From Deinococcales bacterium (GTDB lineage Bacteria; Deinococcota; Deinococci; Deinococcales; JAAFIG01), in assembly GCA_031414595.1 (NCBI GenBank), contig JANNVX010000041.1:32001-96000 (forward strand): a DNA stretch of 64,000 nt, in the 5' to 3' direction. The notes under the pieces are model-generated. The model was not told the DNA's origin and did not search any database. It was given only the letters and a program-made list of their open reading frames with translations. The translations under genes and the position numbers were made by a program. Of this stretch, positions 18,324-59,160 are shown in pieces (within the stretch, counting starts at the first letter, position 1; every line of letters starts with the position of its first letter).

Positions 18324-19994
18324 TTATTGAGATGGTCGTTTACTCGAGAAAAAAGTCGTCAGCAATAACTGGGCTTCTTTCTCGAGTAAACCTGTTCGGA
18401 TACTAAATTGATGATTCCAATTAGCTCGAGACGCATCTAAGACACTGCCCAGCGCTCCAGATTTTGGGTTTCGGGCTGCAAATACAATTCGTGCTATTCG
18501 AGCTTCAAGGGCTGCACCAAGGCACATCAGGCAAGGCTCGAGGGTCACAACCAAGGTGCAATCAGTCAGGTATGGGGTTTTTAGGGCTTGGGTCGCTAAA
18601 CGTAAGACCTCGAGTTCGGCGTGTTGGGTCATGTCACCCAATTCTCGAGACCGATTATGTGCCTCGGTAATCACCACACCATTGTGCAAAATCACCGCAC
18701 CGACTGGCACTTCGCCTTGAGTTGCCGCGATTTGGGCTTGGGCTAATGCTTGGCGCATTGCCTCGAGTTCAGGGTTTTTGACTGGCGGCAAACTCACATC
18801 GAGTAACGGCGGCTCGAGACCTACAAAAACAATTTTTTGCTCAACCGCAAGCACTGGAATTTGGTCTCGGGATTCTCGAGGAATTTTACGGTCAATCAGG
18901 ACTTGCGACAGTTTTTTAGTCCCACCAGACAAGGTTATAAAATCACCGTTTTCTCGAGTTCGCAAAACCGCCTCTGGAAAAGCCTTTTGCGCCAACATAA
19001 ACGCGGATTCATTGCCCAAACCTCGTAAGGGCGAACCCCCGTGTTCGCCCTGCTTTTGCCTATCGCGTTTGTCTGGGTCAGGACAGACACGGGGGTCTGT
19101 CCCTACGGTTGATGGGTGGACATTGATATTGCCGTTTTGCACAAGACCTGTGTAATTATTTGGTAATGAAATTCTGGTGGTTTGCGGTAACTCGAGGGCA
19201 AGTCTGAGGTTTTCAATATGCTGGTAATCCGTTGGAATACTTCGTTGCTCGAGAATTTTACGAATAGCTCGGCGTTGAATAATGGTTTCTTCGAGTCGTA
19301 AATCAGTCCATTCTGGTAAACTTGAGGCTTGTTCTAAATAAGCATCTTCGTCTCGAGCATTTTGGGCATACCTTGCGAGGCGTTGAACAGCATTCGGAAA
19401 ACGCTCAATCAGGCGTGGCAGTATCTCGAGTCTGACCCAGTTGCGAGTAAATTTGGGGTCTTGGTTGCTCGGGTCTTCACGCCAAGTCAAGCCATGCTCG
19501 AGCAGGTATTTCTCGAGAACAGTTTTTGGAATCCCTAAAAGCGGACGATAAACCCGTGCGTTGCGTGGTGGTATGCCAGTGGCTCTGGCTGTGCCGCGCA
19601 AAAGCTGCATCAGAACTGTTTCGGCATTGTCCTCGAGTGTATGCGCTGTTAAAATTGTTTGGCATGAATTTTTCTTCGCTGTTCGGCTTAAAAATTCATA
19701 ACGCACATTTCGGGCAGCTTCCTCGAGCGACCAACTACGTTTTTCGGCGATGCTCGAGACTAAAATCGTTTCCGTAAAAAATTGAATGCCAAGGTTGGCG
19801 CAAATTCGACCCACAAAATCAGCATCCAAGCTCGAGTTTTCACGCAGGGCATGGTCAAGGTGAGCCACCACAATCTCGAGCTTGGCAGCATGAGCCAAAT
19901 GCAGCAGCGCCATAGAATCCCGCCCGCCAGAAACCGCCAGTAAAAACGGGGCTTTGCACGGCTCGAGTTGCGTTTGAAGGTGTGAAACCAGCAT
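18324..19994 (-). CDS. tilS: tRNA(Ile)-lysidine synthetase TilS fused to a TadA-like deaminase
   Basis: AVSGGRDSMAL, TAHTLEDNAET, RNWVR; C-terminal GEVPVGAV, HAE, TLEPCLMC; TGATG-coupled to the upstream gene. Confidence 0.92.
   Translation of the reverse strand: MLVSHLQTQLEPCKAPFLLAVSGGRDSMALLHLAHAAKLEIVVAHLDHALRENSSLDADFVGRICANLGIQFFTETILVSSIAEKRSWSLEEAARNVRYEFLSRTAKKNSCQTILTAHTLEDNAETVLMQLLRGTARATGIPPRNARVYRPLLGIPKTVLEKYLLEHGLTWREDPSNQDPKFTRNWVRLEILPRLIERFPNAVQRLARYAQNARDEDAYLEQASSLPEWTDLRLEETIIQRRAIRKILEQRSIPTDYQHIENLRLALELPQTTRISLPNNYTGLVQNGNINVHPSTVGTDPRVCPDPDKRDRQKQGEHGGSPLRGLGNESAFMLAQKAFPEAVLRTRENGDFITLSGGTKKLSQVLIDRKIPRESRDQIPVLAVEQKIVFVGLEPPLLDVSLPPVKNPELEAMRQALAQAQIAATQGEVPVGAVILHNGVVITEAHNRSRELGDMTQHAELEVLRLATQALKTPYLTDCTLVVTLEPCLMCLGAALEARIARIVFAARNPKSGALGSVLDASRANWNHQFSIRTGLLEKEAQLLLTTFFSSKRPSQ
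19025..19106. repeat. Inverted REP doublet inside the tilS coding sequence
   Basis: GTAAGGGCGAACCCCCGTGTTCGCCC ... GGACAGACACGGGGGTCTGTCCCTAC. Confidence 0.8.
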
Positions 19995-20674
19995 CAGACC
20001 CCCAGAAACCAATAAGGCAAATCTAAATACTGAACCGTAGGGGTTTGCCATGGCAAACCCTGCCCCGAAATTTCGATTTTGGTGTAAAACGGTTCAGCCA
20101 TAATTCCTGTGTTCGGATGCCATTCACGCCCAATACTCACAGCAATGATTAACCCCTGTGCATCTCCAATGGGTGTGAATGAACTCGAGCCTTCGCGGTA
20201 CTTGGGTATGGAAAGAGTTTTTTTTGTCCAATCTGCAAATTCGCTTGCATCTGGTACTGCCATGCCAATTTCTGAGATGCTGAGAATACCTCTCGAGGTG
20301 AATGGTACAGTTTCGTCGTGGTTGAGTTCGTGTCGGGCGATTAACTCGAGGATATTGCCAGCAGGGTCATAAAAATAAATCGCATGGGCGTTCCAATTTA
20401 GAAAATCAGCAATGAAGTCTGACCCGTCTAGTACAATCTCAACTCGAGCCTCGAGCCAAGTTGCTGCCGCTTCTATTTGTTGCTCGGGGATATTAAAAGC
20501 AAAGTGGTACTTAGCGTTTGAAGCTGGTTTCTCGAGAAAGACCAATTCACTCGAGCCAATCTGAATCTGTAAAACACCATTCTCGAGCATCACAGGTAAC
20601 TCCAGAATTTCACCATAAAAAACCTTGAGTGGTGCTAAATCGGTTGTCTCGAGGGTCAAGCGGTGGATGTTCAC
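19994..20674 (-). CDS. VOC/glyoxalase family protein
   Basis: FYGEIL, YHFAFNIP, IYFYDPAGNILELIAR. Confidence 0.85.
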   Translation of the reverse strand: MNIHRLTLETTDLAPLKVFYGEILELPVMLENGVLQIQIGSSELVFLEKPASNAKYHFAFNIPEQQIEAAATWLEARVEIVLDGSDFIADFLNWNAHAIYFYDPAGNILELIARHELNHDETVPFTSRGILSISEIGMAVPDASEFADWTKKTLSIPKYREGSSSFTPIGDAQGLIIAVSIGREWHPNTGIMAEPFYTKIEISGQGLPWQTPTVQYLDLPYWFLGV

Positions 20675-20705: not shown

Positions 20706-22364
20706 GTGAAAAGCGATACGATTAAACAAGGTCCGCAACAAGCCCCCGCTCGAGCCATGCTTCGTGCCATTGGTATTACCGATGCCGAATTTAAGATTCC
20801 GTGGGTCGGGATTATTAACACCTGGACAGAAGGAATGCCCTGTAATTTCCATTTGCGCGACCTTGCCCAAGACTTAAAAGAAGGTTGTAAAGAAGCGGGG
20901 ATTCATCCATTTGAATTTGGTGCGCCCGCCATTTCCGACGGCATCAGCATGGGAACACCGGGGATGCGAGCCAGTCTGGTCTCGAGGGAACTGATTGCCG
21001 ATTGCGTCGAAATCGTGGCTCAAGGCTATATGTATGATGCGATGGTGGCGCTTGTTGCCTGTGATAAAACCAATCCGGGTGGTGCAATGGGCTTAATTCG
21101 AGCCAATGTTCCGGGTTTGGTGCTGTACGGCGGAAGCATTGCGCCAGGTCGTTTGGGCGATAAGAACCTGACCGTGGTCAGTGTTTTTGAAGCCGTTGGA
21201 CAACATGCGGCGGGTAAAATCACCGATGCCGAACTTGATGCCGTTGAACGGGTCGCCATTCCGGGGGCTGGAGCATGTGGTGGTCAGTACACCGCCAACA
21301 CCATGAGCATGGCGCTCGAGGTGCTAGGTTTATCGCCAGTCGGCTACAACAGCATTCCAGCCACTGCGCCTGAGAAAAAAGAAGCCACCCGTAAAGCTGG
21401 TTATGTGCTGATGGACGCAATCAAGCACAACCGAAAGCCGCGTGATTTTTTGACCCGCCAAAGTTTCTTAAATGCAATTGCGGCAGTAGCAGCCACGGGC
21501 GGCAGCACCAACGCGGTACTGCACTTAATGGCAATTGCCAGAGAAACAGACATTCACCTCGAGTTACAAGATTTTGATACGGTCTCGAGGGCAACGCCAG
21601 TCATTGCCAACATGCGCCCGTGGGGGGTGTATACCGCTTGGGAACTCTGGGAGGCTGGTGGAATTCCACTGATTATCAAAAACCTGATAGACGGCGGTAT
21701 GATTGACGGTCATCAAATGACAGTCACAGGTAAGACTTTGGCACAAGAAGTTGAAGGTGTGACTGAAACGGCTGGGCAACAAGTCGTGGTGACAAGGGAA
21801 CATGCTTTTAAGCCAACTGGTGGTTTGTTGGTGCTGCATGGCAACCTTGCTCCAGATGGTGCAGTGCTAAAACTGGCTGGCACAGAACGCCACGAACACA
21901 CAGGCATCGCTCGGGTTTTTGATAACGAACAAAGCGCCATGAAAGCCGTGCTGCATAAACAGATTAACCACGGGGATGTGGTCGTGATTCGCTACGTTGG
22001 ACCAAAAGGCGCACCCGGAATGCCCGAGATGCTTTCAGTCACCAGTGCGATTGTCGGCGAAGGCATTGGCGAGCATGTGGCAATGGTCACAGATGGGCGT
22101 TTTAGTGGCGGCACAAAGGGTTTAATGATTGGGCATGTATCCCCAGAAGCCCAAGTTGGCGGGGCGATTGCGCTGGTGCGTGAAGGCGATATTATCCATA
22201 TCAATTGCGACACGGGTTTACTCGAGTTACGGGTGGATGAAGCAGAATTGGCGGCTCGAGCCAAAACTTGGGTTGCACCTGAACTCGAGTTTAAGACTGG
22301 GCTTTTTGCAAGGTACGCCAAGCAAGTTTCAAGTGCCAAGTACGGTGCAATTCTCGAGGATTAA
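20706..22364 (+). CDS. ilvD: Dihydroxy-acid dehydratase
   Basis: PCNFHL, ISDGISMG, CDKTNPG, CGGQYTANTM, GGSTNA, TDGRFSGGT. Confidence 0.95.
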   Translation: MKSDTIKQGPQQAPARAMLRAIGITDAEFKIPWVGIINTWTEGMPCNFHLRDLAQDLKEGCKEAGIHPFEFGAPAISDGISMGTPGMRASLVSRELIADCVEIVAQGYMYDAMVALVACDKTNPGGAMGLIRANVPGLVLYGGSIAPGRLGDKNLTVVSVFEAVGQHAAGKITDAELDAVERVAIPGAGACGGQYTANTMSMALEVLGLSPVGYNSIPATAPEKKEATRKAGYVLMDAIKHNRKPRDFLTRQSFLNAIAAVAATGGSTNAVLHLMAIARETDIHLELQDFDTVSRATPVIANMRPWGVYTAWELWEAGGIPLIIKNLIDGGMIDGHQMTVTGKTLAQEVEGVTETAGQQVVVTREHAFKPTGGLLVLHGNLAPDGAVLKLAGTERHEHTGIARVFDNEQSAMKAVLHKQINHGDVVVIRYVGPKGAPGMPEMLSVTSAIVGEGIGEHVAMVTDGRFSGGTKGLMIGHVSPEAQVGGAIALVREGDIIHINCDTGLLELRVDEAELAARAKTWVAPELEFKTGLFARYAKQVSSAKYGAILED

Positions 22365-22405
22365 CAAAAACTTTAGGGACTCATAAATTCTGAGTATGAG
22401 TCCCT

Positions 22406-22669
22406 TTAGAACCGTAATTTGTCATAATCGCCGTGCGAACCAATCCACCACCAATGCACGGTATCATCCTCGAGTAAACCAACGGCTCTGTACCCTATTC
22501 CAACCCGAACCGAATACATGGGAACTCTTTGCCCAATGCACTTAAAATGCAAACTTGGATGGTTTGGATTTTGTCTAAATAATTGGTAACTGGCTCGAGC
22601 TTGCTTGCGGATTTCTTCGGGTAACTTACGGTACATTGTCCAAAAAGACTCGAGGGTATTTGAGTTCAC
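22406..22669 (-). CDS. ParE/RelE-like type II toxin
   Basis: FW..YRKLP..I...A..YQLF..NPNHPSLHFK, SVRVGIGYRA, WIGSHGDYDKL. Confidence 0.82.
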   Translation of the reverse strand: MNSNTLESFWTMYRKLPEEIRKQARASYQLFRQNPNHPSLHFKCIGQRVPMYSVRVGIGYRAVGLLEDDTVHWWWIGSHGDYDKLRF

Positions 22670-22881
22670 AGTTTCTCAAAATCCATTGGTTTACTTTGAC
22701 CCGCTGCTATCTCAGCTTGGATTTTTAATGTCATGGCTTCAAGATAATTTTGCGATTCTGGTGTGGAGGTTTTTAAGCTCCACTCGTGTTCTTCTTCGAG
22801 CCGGGCAATAAAATCCTTGAGCGCTGCCAAGTTTTGTGGTGGCACTGCCGCAATTGCATTTTTTAACTCACTCAAACTCAT
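22666..22881 (-). CDS. Putative antitoxin
   Basis: 71-aa acidic protein overlapping the toxin start (GTGA); TAAACT 7 nt before ATG 22881. Confidence 0.7.
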   Translation of the reverse strand: MSLSELKNAIAAVPPQNLAALKDFIARLEEEHEWSLKTSTPESQNYLEAMTLKIQAEIAAGQSKPMDFEKL

Positions 22882-22980
22882 GTGAAACAGTTTAGCACAA
22901 GAGGTTCGTACTCCTCGAGAATTTTGGCTTTGGGTATTTAAGAAATTCAGGACTCGTTTATTGCCGATGTGCAAACTGGT

Positions 22981-25533
22981 TCATTGCCGATGCTGCCTAA
23001 CCCGATTCAAATTTAGCCTATCCTGACTGAGTTGAATAATCGTGTCGGTCTCGAGTGAATGGGCTACACCCAGCACAGCTTTGGCATAAGCAAATCCAGC
23101 TAAGTGCAATCCAGCCAGGACTTGACTTAGAACTTGCTCGAGCGGTTGGTTCTCGAGTGGTGTGCTTGTTTCGATCAGAACCGCAAATTCGCTGCTGCTG
23201 ACGCGGTAGGTGCGTCCTAATTCGGCAAATTGTTGCTCGAGATGTTGGGCAAATTGTTGTAAAAGTTGTGTGCCAGTGCCTTTACCTGAGCGTTCGTTGG
23301 TGATGATAATACCGTCAAGTTCGATAGAAATAACGTGTAAGGCATGGTCTTGACGCTGAGCGCGGCTGAGTTCATTCTCAAAATCGGCATCAAAGGCTTT
23401 GCGGTTATTCAGACCTGTTAGGGTGTCGGTATAGGCTTGGCGCTCGAGTTGAATGGCACGGTATTCGGCTTGTAATCGGGCTTGCTCGAGGTCGTTAATC
23501 TGTTGGCGCATTTGTTGTTCGTGCGGTTGGGTCGGCTCATCGGTTTCTTCTTCTTGGTTGGCAAGGACATAGAAACTCAAGTCATCTTGTTCGTTGGGCA
23601 ATTCTAGGGCATCTGGGTCGCTCAAGGCTCGAATAGCGGCTTGAATCACACTCGGGTCAAATTGAGTTCCACTACCGCGTTCAAGTTCACGCAAGGCTTC
23701 ATCGGCTCGCCATGCACGTTTGTATGGGCGTACTTGAGTCAGGGCATCGTAGACATCGGCAACTGCCACAATCCGCCCCTCGAGTGGAATCACTTCTCCG
23801 GGCAGGTTATACGGGTAGCCTTGTCCATTCCATTGCTCATGGTGTGAAATGGCAATCCGTTCTGCCATTCGCAGTAATTTTGAACGTCCACCCGACAGAA
23901 TTCTCGAGCCAATAACGGTGTGCTGTTTCATTTGATTAAATTCTTCAAGGCTGAGTTTGGCTGGTTTTAAGAGAATTTCATCTGGAATTCCTATTTTCCC
24001 AACATCGTGCAAACGGGCGGCAAGACGCAGTAAGCGCACTTGTGCATCTTTTTGCCCCAATTGTTTGGCAATCAGTGCCGAATAGTGTCCGACCCGAAAG
24101 GTATGTTGTCCTGTGCGGTCATCGCGGTATTCGGCAGCCACAGCCAAGCGCGTCACCACTTCGATTTGCGATTTCTCGAGTTCAAGGGTGCGTTGTCTGA
24201 CTTTGGTTTCGGCTTCAGTTCGGGCTTGTTGGGCGGTAACGGTGCGAAGTCGGTAGACTTCAGCTTCGTTGCGGGCGCGTTCTAAGTCAAACCGAGCCGA
24301 GATGATACGGGTTTGTTTATCGCGTTCCTCATTAAAAGTTCGGCTTCGCAGGGCATAAAAATGCCGATGGTGCATCAAGGCGGTTTTTTCCTTACCTGTT
24401 GCTTCATAGACCGAGGATAAAACCTCATGGGCTTGAAATTGCCCACGTACACTGCCGACCGCTTCAGCCACGTTTAGGGCAATGTGCAAATACTCAAGGG
24501 CTTCTTGATTCGAGTTTAATTCAAAATGGTCTCGTCCTAAGTGCAGCAATGCTTCGAGTTCTTGTTCACGATCCCTAATACTTCGGGCAATTTCAAGCAC
24601 AATCATATGCTGACTAATCGCTTCTTGGAATTGGCTCAGTTGCCTAAAAACCTGTCCTAAACCATCAAGGGCTGCCATTTGCCCTTGTTGAAACCCCGAT
24701 TCTTTGGCGTACATCAGGGCTTCTGAAAAACGTTCTTGAGCGCGGGCAAAGTCAGCCGATTTACGATCCAATTGCCCAAGATTTAAGATATTGACACAAA
24801 GAATAACCGGGTCGCCTAAACTCCGCGCCGCTTCTAATGCTCTTAAGTAATACTCTTGGGCGTTTTGTAAGTCCTCTAAATGTTCAAATGCCAAACCGAT
24901 ATTGACCAAATTGGTAATCTCGAGTTTGCTATCATCTATTGTTTTTAGCAGCGAATGCGCGTCAAATAAGTAGCGCAATGCCATTTCATACTCGCCTAAT
25001 TTAATATAGGTTAAACCCGTGTTGGTCAGGGTTTTGGTCAATTGCTTATTGTCACCAAGGGTTCTTTGTAGTTCTAAGGTTTGTTGCAGTGCCGTTAAAC
25101 TTTCGGTGTAATGCCCCAGTTGTAACTCAACGCTGGCAATCCCCGAACGGGCTTCGATTTCCAGTTTGATTTGATTGTCCTGTTTGGCATAGGCTAAAAC
25201 TTCAAGAAAATGCTTCTTAGCTTCTTCAAAACGCCCAAGCTGGCGTTCAAGTTGCGCCACTTGCAATAAAGATTGAAACGCCAAGTCAAATTCTTCTAAC
25301 CGGCTATACTGACGTGCCGAACGGTACAAAAATCCTCGCGCTAAACGCAGTTCGCCTTGTTGACGTTCTAACAAACCTAGCTTTTCGAGCATTACGGCTC
25401 GAGCCACTGGCTTATTTTTTGTTTCTATAAACCATGAACGCAGTGCAATTCGAGCTTGACTGCGTTCCAGTGGCTTTAATTCTGCTTCAAGCCAGACTTG
25501 TACTTCAAGTAGTGCAGATGGAAAGGAAGTCAT
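22981..25533 (-). CDS. TPR-repeat + HD-GYP phosphodiesterase + degenerate GGDEF protein
   Basis: Long TPR array; LHDVGKIG, HHEQWNGQGYP, DVYDALT..RPYK; TDTLTGLNNR with YRVSSSEF in place of RxGGDEF. Confidence 0.9.
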   Translation of the reverse strand: MTSFPSALLEVQVWLEAELKPLERSQARIALRSWFIETKNKPVARAVMLEKLGLLERQQGELRLARGFLYRSARQYSRLEEFDLAFQSLLQVAQLERQLGRFEEAKKHFLEVLAYAKQDNQIKLEIEARSGIASVELQLGHYTESLTALQQTLELQRTLGDNKQLTKTLTNTGLTYIKLGEYEMALRYLFDAHSLLKTIDDSKLEITNLVNIGLAFEHLEDLQNAQEYYLRALEAARSLGDPVILCVNILNLGQLDRKSADFARAQERFSEALMYAKESGFQQGQMAALDGLGQVFRQLSQFQEAISQHMIVLEIARSIRDREQELEALLHLGRDHFELNSNQEALEYLHIALNVAEAVGSVRGQFQAHEVLSSVYEATGKEKTALMHHRHFYALRSRTFNEERDKQTRIISARFDLERARNEAEVYRLRTVTAQQARTEAETKVRQRTLELEKSQIEVVTRLAVAAEYRDDRTGQHTFRVGHYSALIAKQLGQKDAQVRLLRLAARLHDVGKIGIPDEILLKPAKLSLEEFNQMKQHTVIGSRILSGGRSKLLRMAERIAISHHEQWNGQGYPYNLPGEVIPLEGRIVAVADVYDALTQVRPYKRAWRADEALRELERGSGTQFDPSVIQAAIRALSDPDALELPNEQDDLSFYVLANQEEETDEPTQPHEQQMRQQINDLEQARLQAEYRAIQLERQAYTDTLTGLNNRKAFDADFENELSRAQRQDHALHVISIELDGIIITNERSGKGTGTQLLQQFAQHLEQQFAELGRTYRVSSSEFAVLIETSTPLENQPLEQVLSQVLAGLHLAGFAYAKAVLGVAHSLETDTIIQLSQDRLNLNRVRQHRQ

Positions 25534-25535
25534 GG

Positions 25536-26867
25536 TTATTTCAGAACAGTTTTGAGGTAATTATCTAGATTGAGTCGCCCTTTATAGCCAAGTGTTCCGA
25601 AATAACCTTGATTAGTTGGAGTGCTAAAAGCAAAACCACTATTTTCAGGTAATTGGTAAATACTTGAATCCGCCGTCATCCATGTTTGACGAGCAATCGC
25701 ATCAGAGGTAAATGCCAATCGGTCTGCGCCTTCGCCCAATGCCAAGGCAGCCGCACCACTGGCTACAGCCGTTGCCATCGAAGTTCCAGAAGCCGAAACG
25801 CTGCGGTTTCCCGGAAAAGCAGTGATGATTCCTTGACCTGGTGCGCTTAATTCAAGGTTTGCACCATAATTTGAGAAATTTGATTTAACACCGCCCACAT
25901 CAACACTACCGACACTGATTACACTGCTCGGACCAACCGCTAAAGTGGCTGGGAAGTTCAGGGCAGCATTAAAATTACCAGCCGATAAGAAGACCGCGAT
26001 TTTTTTATTGCCTGCGGCTTGAATCGCCCGTTTGACTGGCTCAGAAAAACCATTGACACTAAGGCTAATGTTAATCACATTTGCTCCGCTCGAGACTGCA
26101 TAATTGATCGCTTGAGCCAATTTATCAGCGTCGCCAGTCCCATCAGCCCCAATCACCCGAAGCGGCAAAATAGTTGCACCGGGGGCAATTTGTAAAGCAA
26201 TCGCAGCCACGGCTGTTCCATGTCCGTTAACAGTATCATCAGGGATGGTATCATCATCTACATAGTCACGCATTTGCGAAGCGGCAACCAAAGAGCGCTT
26301 AAAAGCAGGATGATTTAAGTCAATACCACTATCAATTATAGCGATTTTAATAGATTTACCAAGTTTTGGCGCTCGGGCTTGCCCTTGTTGCAATTTAATA
26401 CTTGTCCAGTTGTTGGTATTGACTGGAATTGGCGCAAATTGACCATCTGCCCAGAGTCCTAAACTACCGTCTGCCCAGAGTCCAAGGCTACCATCCGCCC
26501 AAAGCCCTAAACTACCGTCTGCCCAAAGTCCTAAACTACCATCATTGGTGGTGACTTGATCGACTGCCAAGACATCGGCATTTGGCTCGAGAACCTCTGA
26601 TGACTGCAATCTGGCTTGTGCTGTTTGCAACTGCGAAGTCTGAAAACCAAGCACCGCATACCCTTCTTGTTGGTCAAAAATAATCACCGAAGCCTTGTGT
26701 TTTTCTTCTAAACTGGCTTGGCTGTCTAAATCTTGCAAATCAACAGTTAAAGTGTAGGCATAGCTCGGCACAGGCGAAGTTTGGGTGGCTAGGTTAGTAC
26801 ACGCCGAAAATCCAATTCCGAGTGCCGCTAGTAAGGTCAGTGTTTTTGAGTTTAAGTTCATAGTCAT
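25536..26867 (-). CDS. S8 subtilase lipoprotein with 4x GSLGLWAD repeat
   Basis: Lipobox GFSAC; triad IIDSG, NGHGT, SGTSMA; start could be 26861. Confidence 0.9.
   Translation of the reverse strand: MTMNLNSKTLTLLAALGIGFSACTNLATQTSPVPSYAYTLTVDLQDLDSQASLEEKHKASVIIFDQQEGYAVLGFQTSQLQTAQARLQSSEVLEPNADVLAVDQVTTNDGSLGLWADGSLGLWADGSLGLWADGSLGLWADGQFAPIPVNTNNWTSIKLQQGQARAPKLGKSIKIAIIDSGIDLNHPAFKRSLVAASQMRDYVDDDTIPDDTVNGHGTAVAAIALQIAPGATILPLRVIGADGTGDADKLAQAINYAVSSGANVINISLSVNGFSEPVKRAIQAAGNKKIAVFLSAGNFNAALNFPATLAVGPSSVISVGSVDVGGVKSNFSNYGANLELSAPGQGIITAFPGNRSVSASGTSMATAVASGAAALALGEGADRLAFTSDAIARQTWMTADSSIYQLPENSGFAFSTPTNQGYFGTLGYKGRLNLDNYLKTVLK
26445..26540 (-). repeat. 4 x 24-bp coding repeat (GSLGLWAD)
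   Basis: Units 26445-68, 26469-92, 26493-516, 26517-40; all differences are synonymous. Confidence 0.95.
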
Positions 26868-27088
26868 TCCTTATGAGAGAGTTTAGAAAACTTCATCTTT
26901 CTTAAGTCTTACAAACAACCGATTAAACTCCTAAGCGCACAATATCACGTTTGAAGTCTTTTTTTTGTTCTCAGCACACGCTTAATAACAATTTGTACAG
27001 AATTTATTGAAGGTAGACTCAGTATAAAATTTTATAAATCCCTTCGATTTACACAAGCCAATGTCGGAAATGCACACCATTTTTTGGA

Positions 27089-28174
27089 TTAAGATTGCAA
27101 GGCAGCACTCAGCAATTGGTGGAAGTGATGCACACAGGCTTCACGGGCTGGACTAAACCGCCCAGTGTTATAAAATCTCGAGCGAACCCCACGTTGTACC
27201 GCCTCAACCACCACTTCATCTTCGCGTTCAACTCGGTCTAAACCCGCCCCAGCCCCAGACTCGAGGCTACTTGCATCCCAGATATACGGTATAAAACTGA
27301 CCTTACAACGGTCATGAGATAGTGGGCGCACGACGTTAATACTGAGTCCCCACGGATAAAAATTCAGCATTATATTTGGAAACACCCAGTAGTAATAAGC
27401 CGCTATTTTCTGCCCATAATCTGGACTCGAGCGCGGCAAATCAAAAACGCTTTCACCACTGCTGGCAACCCCAAGTTGGAGATTGCACCAATCGTACTGT
27501 TCGGTGGTGTAACTGCCGTAATCTATGGCGGCGTTTAAGCTGGCATGAATATAGGGGATATGAAACCCCTCAAGGTAATTGTCGCAGTAGAGCGCCCAAT
27601 TTGCCCTGACCAAGTAATCTCGCGCCCTTGTTTGGTCAAAATAAAATTCTCGCAACGGCAACCAGCCGAGGCGGGCTTTAATCGGTGCAAGCATCGTCTC
27701 GAGACTGACGCTTGGATTGAGATTGACAAAGCCCAGTTTATCCCATGTTTCAAAAGCAATTTTAGGCAAATTGTCGGCTTGAGTCGGGAAATTCTGGACT
27801 GCTTCAAATTCGGGCATACTGTGGAAACAACCATCCAACCCAAACCGCCGCCCATGATAACGACAACGTAGAAAACGCTCTACGCCACCAGTTTCTGCCA
27901 CTAACATACCACGGTGGGTACAGACATTAGAAAGCCCGTGCAATTGGTCATTAAAATCCCGAGTCAGTAAAATCGGTTCGTCCAGACACCCTTCCAGAAC
28001 CGTGATGGGTTTCACACTTCCGGGGGCTTTTAGCTCGTCGGTATCACCAACAAATTGCCAAGACCGTGCAAAGATTTTTTCTTTAGACAACTCAAACATA
28101 CTTGGGTCTTTGTAAAAAGAACTGGGCAGTGTGGCGGCTTGGGTGATGTCTGGGTGAACCTCGAGTGATGACAT
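27089..28174 (-). CDS. Rieske non-heme iron oxygenase alpha subunit (choline monooxygenase-like)
   Basis: CTHRG...CRYHG Rieske motif, DNYLEGFHIPYIH iron site. Confidence 0.88.
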   Translation of the reverse strand: MSSLEVHPDITQAATLPSSFYKDPSMFELSKEKIFARSWQFVGDTDELKAPGSVKPITVLEGCLDEPILLTRDFNDQLHGLSNVCTHRGMLVAETGGVERFLRCRYHGRRFGLDGCFHSMPEFEAVQNFPTQADNLPKIAFETWDKLGFVNLNPSVSLETMLAPIKARLGWLPLREFYFDQTRARDYLVRANWALYCDNYLEGFHIPYIHASLNAAIDYGSYTTEQYDWCNLQLGVASSGESVFDLPRSSPDYGQKIAAYYYWVFPNIMLNFYPWGLSINVVRPLSHDRCKVSFIPYIWDASSLESGAGAGLDRVEREDEVVVEAVQRGVRSRFYNTGRFSPAREACVHHFHQLLSAALQS

Positions 28175-58836: not shown

Positions 58837-58965
58837 AAAAACCTCTAACAAGAAGGCGAAAAACACAAAAAGACGCACTGGAAACACCAGAACGTCAACC
58901 TATAAAAACTCAAATACCATAAAAACGCCCCCTTTCTCTCGAGAGGTGAACCCAAAAGGTTCAGA

Positions 58966-59076
58966 TTTGGCAGGCATTCGGGCTTATGAACAAATCAATT
59001 ACCGTTGCGGAACAGCGCTGGAATTGCACCAGCTTCCCCATTTTTATCTCGAGATTACGCACCTCGAGAACCAAAC
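58966..59076 (-). ncRNA. Cobalamin riboswitch
   Basis: Minus strand GGGAAGCTGGTGCAATTCCAGCGCTGTTCCGCAACGGT...AGCCCGAATGCCTGCC; TAGACT box just upstream; boundaries approximate. Confidence 0.92.
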
Positions 59077-59160
59077 GGGTGCAGTCTACACTTTTTAGGT
59101 ACATCAGTGCGTTCATGTGACGGTACATCTTGACCACTTGTGCAGGATTACACTAAGTCC

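Follow-up and report, generated by a model that had tools for sequence, protein, structure and literature searches.

Why does a protease of the S8 (subtilase) family carry several identical copies of a short tryptophan-bearing peptide inside its own precursor, and why is its gene followed almost immediately by that of a tetratricopeptide repeat (TPR) protein with cyclic-dinucleotide output domains? This question is raised by a locus of a Deinococcales bacterium, located at positions 22981 to 26867 of a 64,000-nucleotide stretch of contig JANNVX010000041.1 (hereafter the window), where two genes, P0001 and P0002, lie in tandem on the minus strand. In this work, we characterized both gene products, their relatives and their genomic neighbourhoods by computational approaches, and we found that the pair is a conserved two-gene cassette of the Deinococcota, in which the sensor is kept and its output is swapped. 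The best-supported reading of this cassette is a peptide-signal mechanism, which we put forward tentatively, at a little short of even chances.

The first gene of the pair (P0001, 25536..26867, 443 aa) was delimited by its open reading frame (ORF), translation and Pfam matches. An earlier, sequence-only reading of this DNA had described its product as an S8 protease with a lipobox and an intact D/H/S triad, and both features were found as described. The protein begins with a lipoprotein signal peptide ending in the lipobox FSAC (Cys23; 26799..26867); a script search found a lipobox-type motif in all 18 members of the family alignment, and the Cys is invariant in 18/18. By its predicted signal peptide and its lipobox with an invariant Cys, it is classified as a putative bacterial lipoprotein. 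The catalytic domain (residues 170-399; 25671..26360) matches Peptidase_S8 (PF00082) with an E-value of 2.1e-37 and 129.4 bits against a curated cut-off of 21.8, and the triad D179, H216 and S363, together with the oxyanion residue N298, is invariant in the 18 aligned members.

An AlphaFold2 (AF2) model of the S8 protein, built on the same 18-member alignment (mean pLDDT 80.5), displays a beta-alpha-beta-beta-alpha-beta domain at residues 33-105 (26553..26771; pLDDT 83-94), with a short strand at residues 100-102, and a disordered repeat region at residues 107-140 (pLDDT <50). The best Protein Data Bank (PDB) matches retrieved with Foldseek were unautoprocessed pro-subtilisin E (3whi) and pro-Tk-subtilisin (2z2z, 2e1p), with E-values of 1e-22 to 1e-19 over 419-463 aligned columns, and therefore the pro-domain is included in the structural match; Pfam I9 gave no match in the S8 protein. 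As modelled, the protein carries an I9-type pro-domain docked on the catalytic domain, as classical pro-subtilisins do, and it shares with them the D-H-S triad and the oxyanion Asn. It differs from them in an array of 16-56 residues, composed of identical Trp units and inserted at the pro/mature junction, in an N-terminal lipid anchor ahead of the pro-domain, and in an almost constant TPR neighbour. The pro/mature junction is the site where subtilisins cut themselves, as established for the family, and the model places the Trp array as an insertion exactly there; since it follows the docked pro-domain, precedes the mature N-terminus and is disordered in the model, the array would be accessible to a protease. 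Taken together, the S8 protein is a lipoprotein zymogen consisting of a signal peptide, an I9-like pro-domain, an array of 2-7 Trp-bearing units (Trp being the last residue of each unit in the register used) and a catalytic domain. No NCBIfam model reached its cut-off for either protein of the pair; for the S8 protein, assignments to type VII mycosin (TIGR03921, score 117 against a cut-off of 278.75) and to the PatA-PatG cyanobactin protease (TIGR03895, 63.3 against 421.05) were rejected, as was a cyanobactin-type or other precursor of ribosomally synthesized and post-translationally modified peptides, given NCBIfam scores far under cut-off and no linked modifying enzymes.

The array of the window protein, a candidate peptide cassette, comprises four GSLGLWAD units at residues 110-141 (26445..26540), identical and placed between pro-region and catalytic domain as the sequence-only reading had stated, and Tandem Repeats Finder resolved it as a repeat of period 24 with 4.2 copies. 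At the DNA level, 8 of the 24 nucleotide positions vary among the four copies, in every case synonymously; therefore, the array is neither a recent duplication nor an assembly artefact. A profile of the pro-domain plus array (the N-terminal profile) matched 280 clusters at E<=1e-3 among 1.84 billion representatives, and the 149 S8 family representatives obtained from these matches were surveyed for repeats. At least two exact tandem copies were found in 123 of the 149 (period 7 in 99, period 8 in 24), every one of these 123 units containing a Trp, and no exact tandem was present in the remaining 26. The unit frame [AS]-[GSD]-G ... [A/L/V]-W is nearly fixed, and the 2-4 middle residues are hypervariable, with an entropy of 2.5-3.0 bits. 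Copies within one gene are identical at the protein level and differ synonymously at up to 7 of 8 codons; since the arrays were selected by script for exact protein identity, the zero count of non-synonymous differences holds by construction, and the informative part is the synonymous depth.

Among relatives from the same order, tandem units of 7-8 residues with an invariant Trp at the same position were observed and the unit sequences differ (GSVSAWAG, GRSGMWAD, GKISMWSG, GLSTIWSG, GRARIWSG and many more), so that the anticipated variation of the repeat from locus to locus is borne out; dozens of different units were seen across the S8 family. For instance, one orthologue with 73% identity displays the same Leu-to-Val change in all five of its unit copies, and in closer relatives the unit remains SLG[LIV]W while the flanking N-terminal region drops to 53-59% identity. 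A degenerate unit stands just ahead of the first true repeat, with Met or Phe at the Trp position. In a second census, to which 60 further genomes contributed one S8 gene each, namely their best match, 18 genomes lacked an exact tandem, and 16 of these (L127, L138, L142, L147, L151-L154, L156, L160, L163, L166, L168, L172, L173 and L181) carry A-B-A arrays, in which two identical units surround a different one, such as GGSRSIWAS-GDIQAWA-GGSRSIWAS; this order suggests that two distinct peptides could be obtained from one precursor. The array of L148 consists of three different units, and in that of L183 the middle unit is flanked by two units differing at one residue. As judged from these sequence comparisons, the peptide arrays are maintained by selection, and the repeats behave like products and not like a spacer.

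The S8 family was detected in 141 of 301 sampled genomes of the phylum with a full-length profile at E<=1e-80, its presence by taxonomic family being 9/9, 87/112, 29/103, 15/62 and 0/14, and the relatives of the window protein are assigned to Deinococcales, Deinococcaceae, Thermaceae or Deinococcota. The N-terminal profile gave three matches in the window's own genome as positive control, and none in 301 genomes searched of the phylum of an Amycolatopsis locus or in 201 searched of the phylum of a Caldilineaceae locus. When loci were searched with the full S8 alignment, most of the 80 obtained held generic S8 proteases from other phyla and only 5 a full-length relative, and a word-based protein search with S8 residues 30-170 found 14 close relatives only. 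The names of ten S8 family cluster representatives were limited to 'S8 family serine peptidase [Trueperaceae bacterium]' and 'thermitase'. The cassette is also present in cultured species; in Deinococcus aquaticus, the pair corresponds to M8445_RS16715/16720, annotated only as 'S8 family serine peptidase' and 'HD domain-containing phosphohydrolase', and pairs were likewise seen in D. psychrotolerans and D. alpinitundrae. Between 2 and 5 cassettes are present in several genomes. Of the 13 S8 ORFs in the genome of the window, 3 carry Trp repeats, namely the window gene and two S8-CBM paralogues of about 600 aa. These paralogues (L121:5353-8219 and L122:5564-7363) carry a C-terminal CBM_4_9 domain and GWATWSS or GWSTWSS repeats at the same junction; a stand-alone TPR protein of 350 aa comes after that of L121, and that of L122 lacks a TPR neighbour.

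The second gene (P0002, 22981..25533, 850 aa; ORF and Pfam) begins with an ATG at 25533, and the S8 stop codon ends at 25536, which leaves the noted gap of 2 nt. Its product had been read as a protein with a long TPR array, an intact HD-GYP domain, a degenerate GGDEF domain and no transmembrane segment, and Pfam, motifs and hydropathy agree on each point. The TPR array (TPR_12, E 1.1e-32) forms in the AF2 model (mean pLDDT 92.2) a superhelix of 19 helices, or about 9.5 repeats of 40 residues, at residues 8-378 (24400..25512). A single long helix at residues 382-439 (24217..24390; AF2 secondary structure) leads from this array to the HD-GYP domain and may act as a signalling or dimerisation helix. 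The HD-GYP domain (residues 467-629; 23647..24135) matches HD_5 with an E-value of 2.1e-32 and 112.7 bits against a cut-off of 27.2, and its motifs are intact (HD at 508, HHE at 564, GYP at 572). RpfG is an HD-GYP phosphodiesterase with a receiver input domain; P0002 resembles phosphodiesterases of this type in its HD_5 match and its intact HD and GYP motifs, and differs in having a TPR array as input instead of a receiver domain, its predicted substrate being cyclic di-GMP (c-di-GMP) or another cyclic dinucleotide. The GGDEF domain (residues 700-811; 23101..23436) matches its Pfam model with an E-value of 1.1e-16, over profile positions 1-112 of 161 only; its site reads SSSEF at 779, and GGDEF is kept in three aligned relatives. 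Lacking the GG[DE]EF motif, P0002 is not predicted to be an active diguanylate cyclase. Its maximum Kyte-Doolittle mean over 19 residues was 1.58, with no hydrophobic segment, and no transmembrane segment was found in the TPR partners checked (P0002 and 16 relatives). Direct protease control by a c-di-GMP protein in the manner of LapD/LapG was ruled out, as the TPR protein has no membrane segment.

By both structure and profile, the sensor was matched best by LGN/Pins and kinesin light chain (KLC) (6hc2, 3sf4, 4wnd), in which 40-residue TPRs build a superhelix whose inner groove takes up extended linear peptides. LGN/Pins TPR domains ranked first with Foldseek, with a TM-score normalised to the target of 0.75-0.84, and profile matches reached 1e-48 for LGN, with Pins also matched, 1e-32 for KLC1, 2.5e-17 for NprR and 9e-15 for RapF. 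Given this mode of peptide binding in LGN and KLC, the TPR fold of P0002 is of the peptide-reading kind. As stated in a passage of PMC6214655, KLC TPR domains recognise short peptides, including Trp-acidic motifs; the unit of the window array ends in Trp-Ala-Asp. Conversely, LGN and KLC are eukaryotic scaffolds without enzymatic output, and the likeness is one of fold and repeat type only. A complex prediction of the TPR domain (residues 1-440) with the array segment (residues 103-146) yielded no answer (score 0.02) and speaks neither for nor against binding.

The association of both genes was assessed in two sets of loci. For the first, 26 distinct loci with a Trp-repeat S8 gene were drawn from the highest-ranking matches of the window protein, with contigs ending at the S8 gene (L005/L120, L014, L016) not being judgeable for the neighbour. 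A TPR protein adjoins the S8 gene in 20 of these 26 loci, and its output is HD-GYP only in eight, HD-GYP plus GGDEF in four (including the window), a HATPase_c kinase in three, GGDEF in two, GGDEF-EAL in one, CHAT in one and none in one. In the second set, that of the 60 further genomes, a TPR-profile match stands beside the S8 gene in 57 (E 1e-99 to 1e-155), directly downstream on the same strand in 55 and divergent in two. With output domains called at E<=1e-12, 27 of these partners carry HD_5 plus GGDEF, 27 HD_5 only, and three TPR only. No third conserved gene was found, the largest other family among 876 flanking ORFs occurring in 4 of 60 loci. Thus, the TPR sensor is the almost constant and only conserved neighbour of the Trp-repeat S8 gene, and the expectation that the pair would be conserved as neighbours held in both sets. 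A promoter and terminator scan of positions 22300-27400 gave counts not above those of shuffled sequences and holds no information on an operon, a look-up of RNA runs listed none, and an Rfam search over the whole window found nothing in or near the pair.

Several loci display particular arrangements. At L116:3213-7735, the genes after the S8 gene encode a 1006-aa TPR-CHAT protease and then a REC-PAS-HD-GYP response regulator, an order that would tie the cassette to a caspase-like output. At L103:2575-5853, a Trp-repeat S8 gene (GSVTAWSG x5) is followed by a 1093-aa eCIS_core-domain protein instead of a TPR protein. Tandem Trp-repeat S8 genes with no adjacent TPR gene occur at L118, L022 and L185, the last being a pair on Deinococcus deserti plasmid 1 (DEIDE_RS13890/13885); at L118, a 7TM-PAS-GGDEF protein stands after two tandem S8 genes, in place of the TPR gene. 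The closest relative of the window locus (L002:2832-3998) has an S8 protein 98% identical, and its TPR frame is cut short at 389 aa, with 133 nt left to the end of the contig, which could reflect a pseudogene or an assembly problem.

To account for the cassette, we propose that the zymogen is both the precursor and the maturase of a peptide sensed by the TPR protein, so that the two genes would constitute a self-contained signalling cassette, a proposal whose probability we place near, and slightly under, the halfway mark. After export, the S8 enzyme would autoprocess, cutting the disordered array at a constant frame. Subtilisins prefer large hydrophobic residues at P1, and the degenerate first unit has Met or Phe at the Trp position; for these reasons we favour, as the simplest possibility, a cut after each Trp as P1 residue. 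In this organism, such cutting would free several copies of an ADGSLGLW-type 8-mer, and 7-9-mers would be freed generally. The peptide would be taken up, presumably through a housekeeping Opp/Dpp-type permease, and would bind the concave groove of the co-translated cytoplasmic TPR superhelix; binding would be relayed through the long connecting helix to the HD-GYP domain, altering the hydrolysis of a cyclic dinucleotide, probably c-di-GMP. In other lineages, the same sensor would drive a diguanylate cyclase, a GGDEF-EAL pair, a histidine kinase or a CHAT protease, and the 2-4 hypervariable residues before the Trp would be each lineage's own signal word.

If the peptide is read by the TPR domain, both should covary, as the sequence-only reading had proposed. 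This was assessed with Mantel statistics on 67 S8-TPR pairs, taking as unit similarity the identity of the four residues before the Trp. Unit identity correlated with the identity of the TPR domain at r 0.35 and with that of the S8 catalytic domain at r 0.31. In the partial test of unit against TPR domain given the catalytic domain, r was 0.183, reached by 1 of 1000 permutations (p 0.001), and the reverse partial test, of unit against catalytic domain given the TPR domain, gave r 0.048 (p 0.13). The partial correlation lends weak support to a coupling between peptide and TPR domain: unit similarity does track the TPR domain over the catalytic domain as was proposed (0.18, p 0.001 versus 0.05, p 0.13), in a test that is itself weak and confounded by relatedness.

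Several observations weigh against the proposed mechanism. Regarding this test, the effect is small, related sequences are non-independent and the test is liberal under relatedness, and a faster-evolving TPR domain could yield the same result without co-evolution. Regarding the linkage, no TPR neighbour was found in 6 of the 26 loci of the first set (L022, L024, L025, L103, L118, L122) or in 3 of the 60 of the second (L147, L152, L168); both censuses began from best matches to a profile built mainly on TPR-linked members, and therefore the linkage fraction is biased upward, and, judging from identical Pfam rows, the two sets may share a locus. The sequence-only reading had tied the repeats to the TPR partner, and this part of it needs correcting, given that Trp repeats also occur in paralogous S8 proteins with no TPR neighbour; since such genes exist, the repeats must serve in some way for which a TPR gene next door is not strictly required. 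Regarding import, the peptide would arise on the outer side of the cytoplasmic membrane, across from the sensor, with no importer linked: an SBP_bac_5 (Opp/Dpp-type) gene was found within 4.5 kb in 1 of 60 loci only, and the 15 SBP_bac_5 matches in the window's own genome are not specific evidence for peptide import. The sensor had further been compared to RRNPP receptors, and membership in this group could not be demonstrated, its fold being closest to LGN/Pins and its sequence profile closer to LGN/KLC than to NprR or RapF. Finally, cleavage of the array, peptide release, uptake, TPR binding and phosphodiesterase control are steps that we infer.

Among the alternatives, the one that survives best is that the Trp array is a zymogen maturation device only, namely a cleavage-site cassette, a pseudo-substrate brake or an activation-timing spacer, with the TPR protein sensing something else, which we regard as unlikely; with the same reserve, the genes would adjoin because c-di-GMP signalling and an envelope protease are co-expressed for one lifestyle switch. 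This explanation draws on the position of the array exactly at the pro-domain/mature junction of a pro-subtilisin-like fold, on the Trp-repeat S8 genes that have no TPR neighbour, and on the constant frame around an aromatic residue, which is how a repeated cleavage site is expected to look. However, a spacer or brake needs no copies that are identical within a gene and yet hypervariable across lineages, and both the partial correlation with the TPR domain and the homologous TPR sensor that accompanies the S8 gene in 57 of 60 genomes, whatever its output and with no other conserved neighbour, are left unexplained.

It is improbable that the TPR protein reads the array inside the cell, on the unexported precursor or a cytoplasmic fraction of it, so that the cassette would report protease synthesis or export. 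The gap of 2 nt, which makes translational coupling probable, and a cytoplasmic sensor with no linked importer would suit such a role; nevertheless, neither the lipoprotein signal peptide nor its Cys varies across the family, so that most of the S8 protein is exported, the cytoplasmic lifetime of pre-proteins is normally brief, and several identical copies would have no reason. That the released peptides act extracellularly (antimicrobial, adhesive or surface-active), with the TPR protein regulating the operon or responding to envelope state, would fit short amphipathic Trp peptides in many copies per precursor and the arrays with two different units in A-B-A order, but deserves little credence, as the units are only 7-8 residues long and mostly Gly/Ser/Ala with one Trp, no modification or export genes are linked, and the fidelity of the TPR partner and the swapping of its signalling outputs are unexplained.

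The peptide-signal mechanism has its nearest counterparts in the RRNPP(A) systems of Bacillota (Rap-Phr, NprR-NprX, PlcR-PapR), the present cassette belonging to Deinococcota. In both, the gene for an exported precursor adjoins that for a cytoplasmic TPR-type receptor, and a short lineage-variable peptide, processing by an extracellular protease and the possibility of several copies per precursor would be shared, these being proposed for the present case. Opp-dependent import and binding in the TPR groove, which belong to RRNPP(A), are likewise only proposed here. Rap-Phr propeptides can hold tandemly duplicated pheromones, as a passage of PMC11343458 describes. In contrast, the precursor of the present cassette is the 443-aa processing protease itself and not a propeptide of 30-70 aa, with no adjacent gene for a small secreted propeptide; its outputs are HD-GYP, GGDEF, EAL, kinase and CHAT, and not a helix-turn-helix domain or a Rap phosphatase/anti-activator; and its sensor is nearest in fold to LGN/Pins, the Foldseek matches listed for the TPR model (ranks up to 49) including no RRNPP receptor. 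A second counterpart is found in fungi, where Kex2, an S8 protease, cuts repeat precursors such as yeast alpha-factor, which holds tandem Trp-containing peptides separated at dibasic sites and read by a G-protein-coupled receptor. The tandem identical short Trp-containing units and the S8 protease are common to both, cutting being proposed for the present array; the fungal precursor and protease are separate, and the array of the cassette has no Lys-Arg spacers.

To our knowledge, peptide signalling through cytoplasmic TPR receptors has so far been described for Bacillota and their phages. The sequence-only reading knew of no description of this architecture, and full-text searches of a limited collection of papers found no account of the S8-TPR pair or of the repeats. 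The passages of a Deinococcus review that bear on this mention only another subtilase pairing, DR_A0283 with DR_A0281/0282, and the signalling systems that they list are an acyl-homoserine-lactone system and AI-2, peptide quorum sensing not being among them (PMC6300522). The cassette is thus real and conserved, and apparently undescribed. A broader claim, which we hold with more reserve, is that many Deinococcota possess a new class of peptide pheromone, encoded as a polyprotein inside its own protease zymogen, with lineage-specific words in a Trp frame and a cytoplasmic TPR receptor of LGN-like fold coupled directly to cyclic-dinucleotide enzymes or kinases. If true, the mechanism would provide a direct peptide input to c-di-GMP signalling, a new form of signal encoding with precursor and maturase in one polypeptide and, given the dozens of different units, ready-made orthogonal peptide-sensor pairs. 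If the signalling reading is false, a strictly conserved gene pair, present in roughly half of the genomes sampled from the phylum and bearing arrays kept by selection, still needs explaining. Since the cassette is present in cultured species such as D. aquaticus, the hypothesis is directly testable.

The window genes around the pair are unrelated to it, and include a Rieske oxygenase and an acyl-CoA synthetase upstream, and a ParE-like toxin pair and ilvD downstream. Immediately after the TPR gene, at 22406-22974 on the minus strand, lies a ParE-like toxin ORF (87 aa, PF24732, 8.2e-11), with a 102-aa ORF upstream of it that overlaps by 4 nt and has no Pfam match; both probably constitute a toxin-antitoxin pair. 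The only Rfam match of the window is a cobalamin riboswitch (RF00174) at 58952-59090 on the minus strand, with 58.2 bits. At 18324-20051, also on the minus strand, a 575-aa ORF joins a TilS-type PP-loop and a TilS C-terminal domain to a deaminase domain of the cytidine/deoxycytidylate type (MafB19-like, 2.1e-29), an unusual joining of two tRNA-modification-type enzymes.

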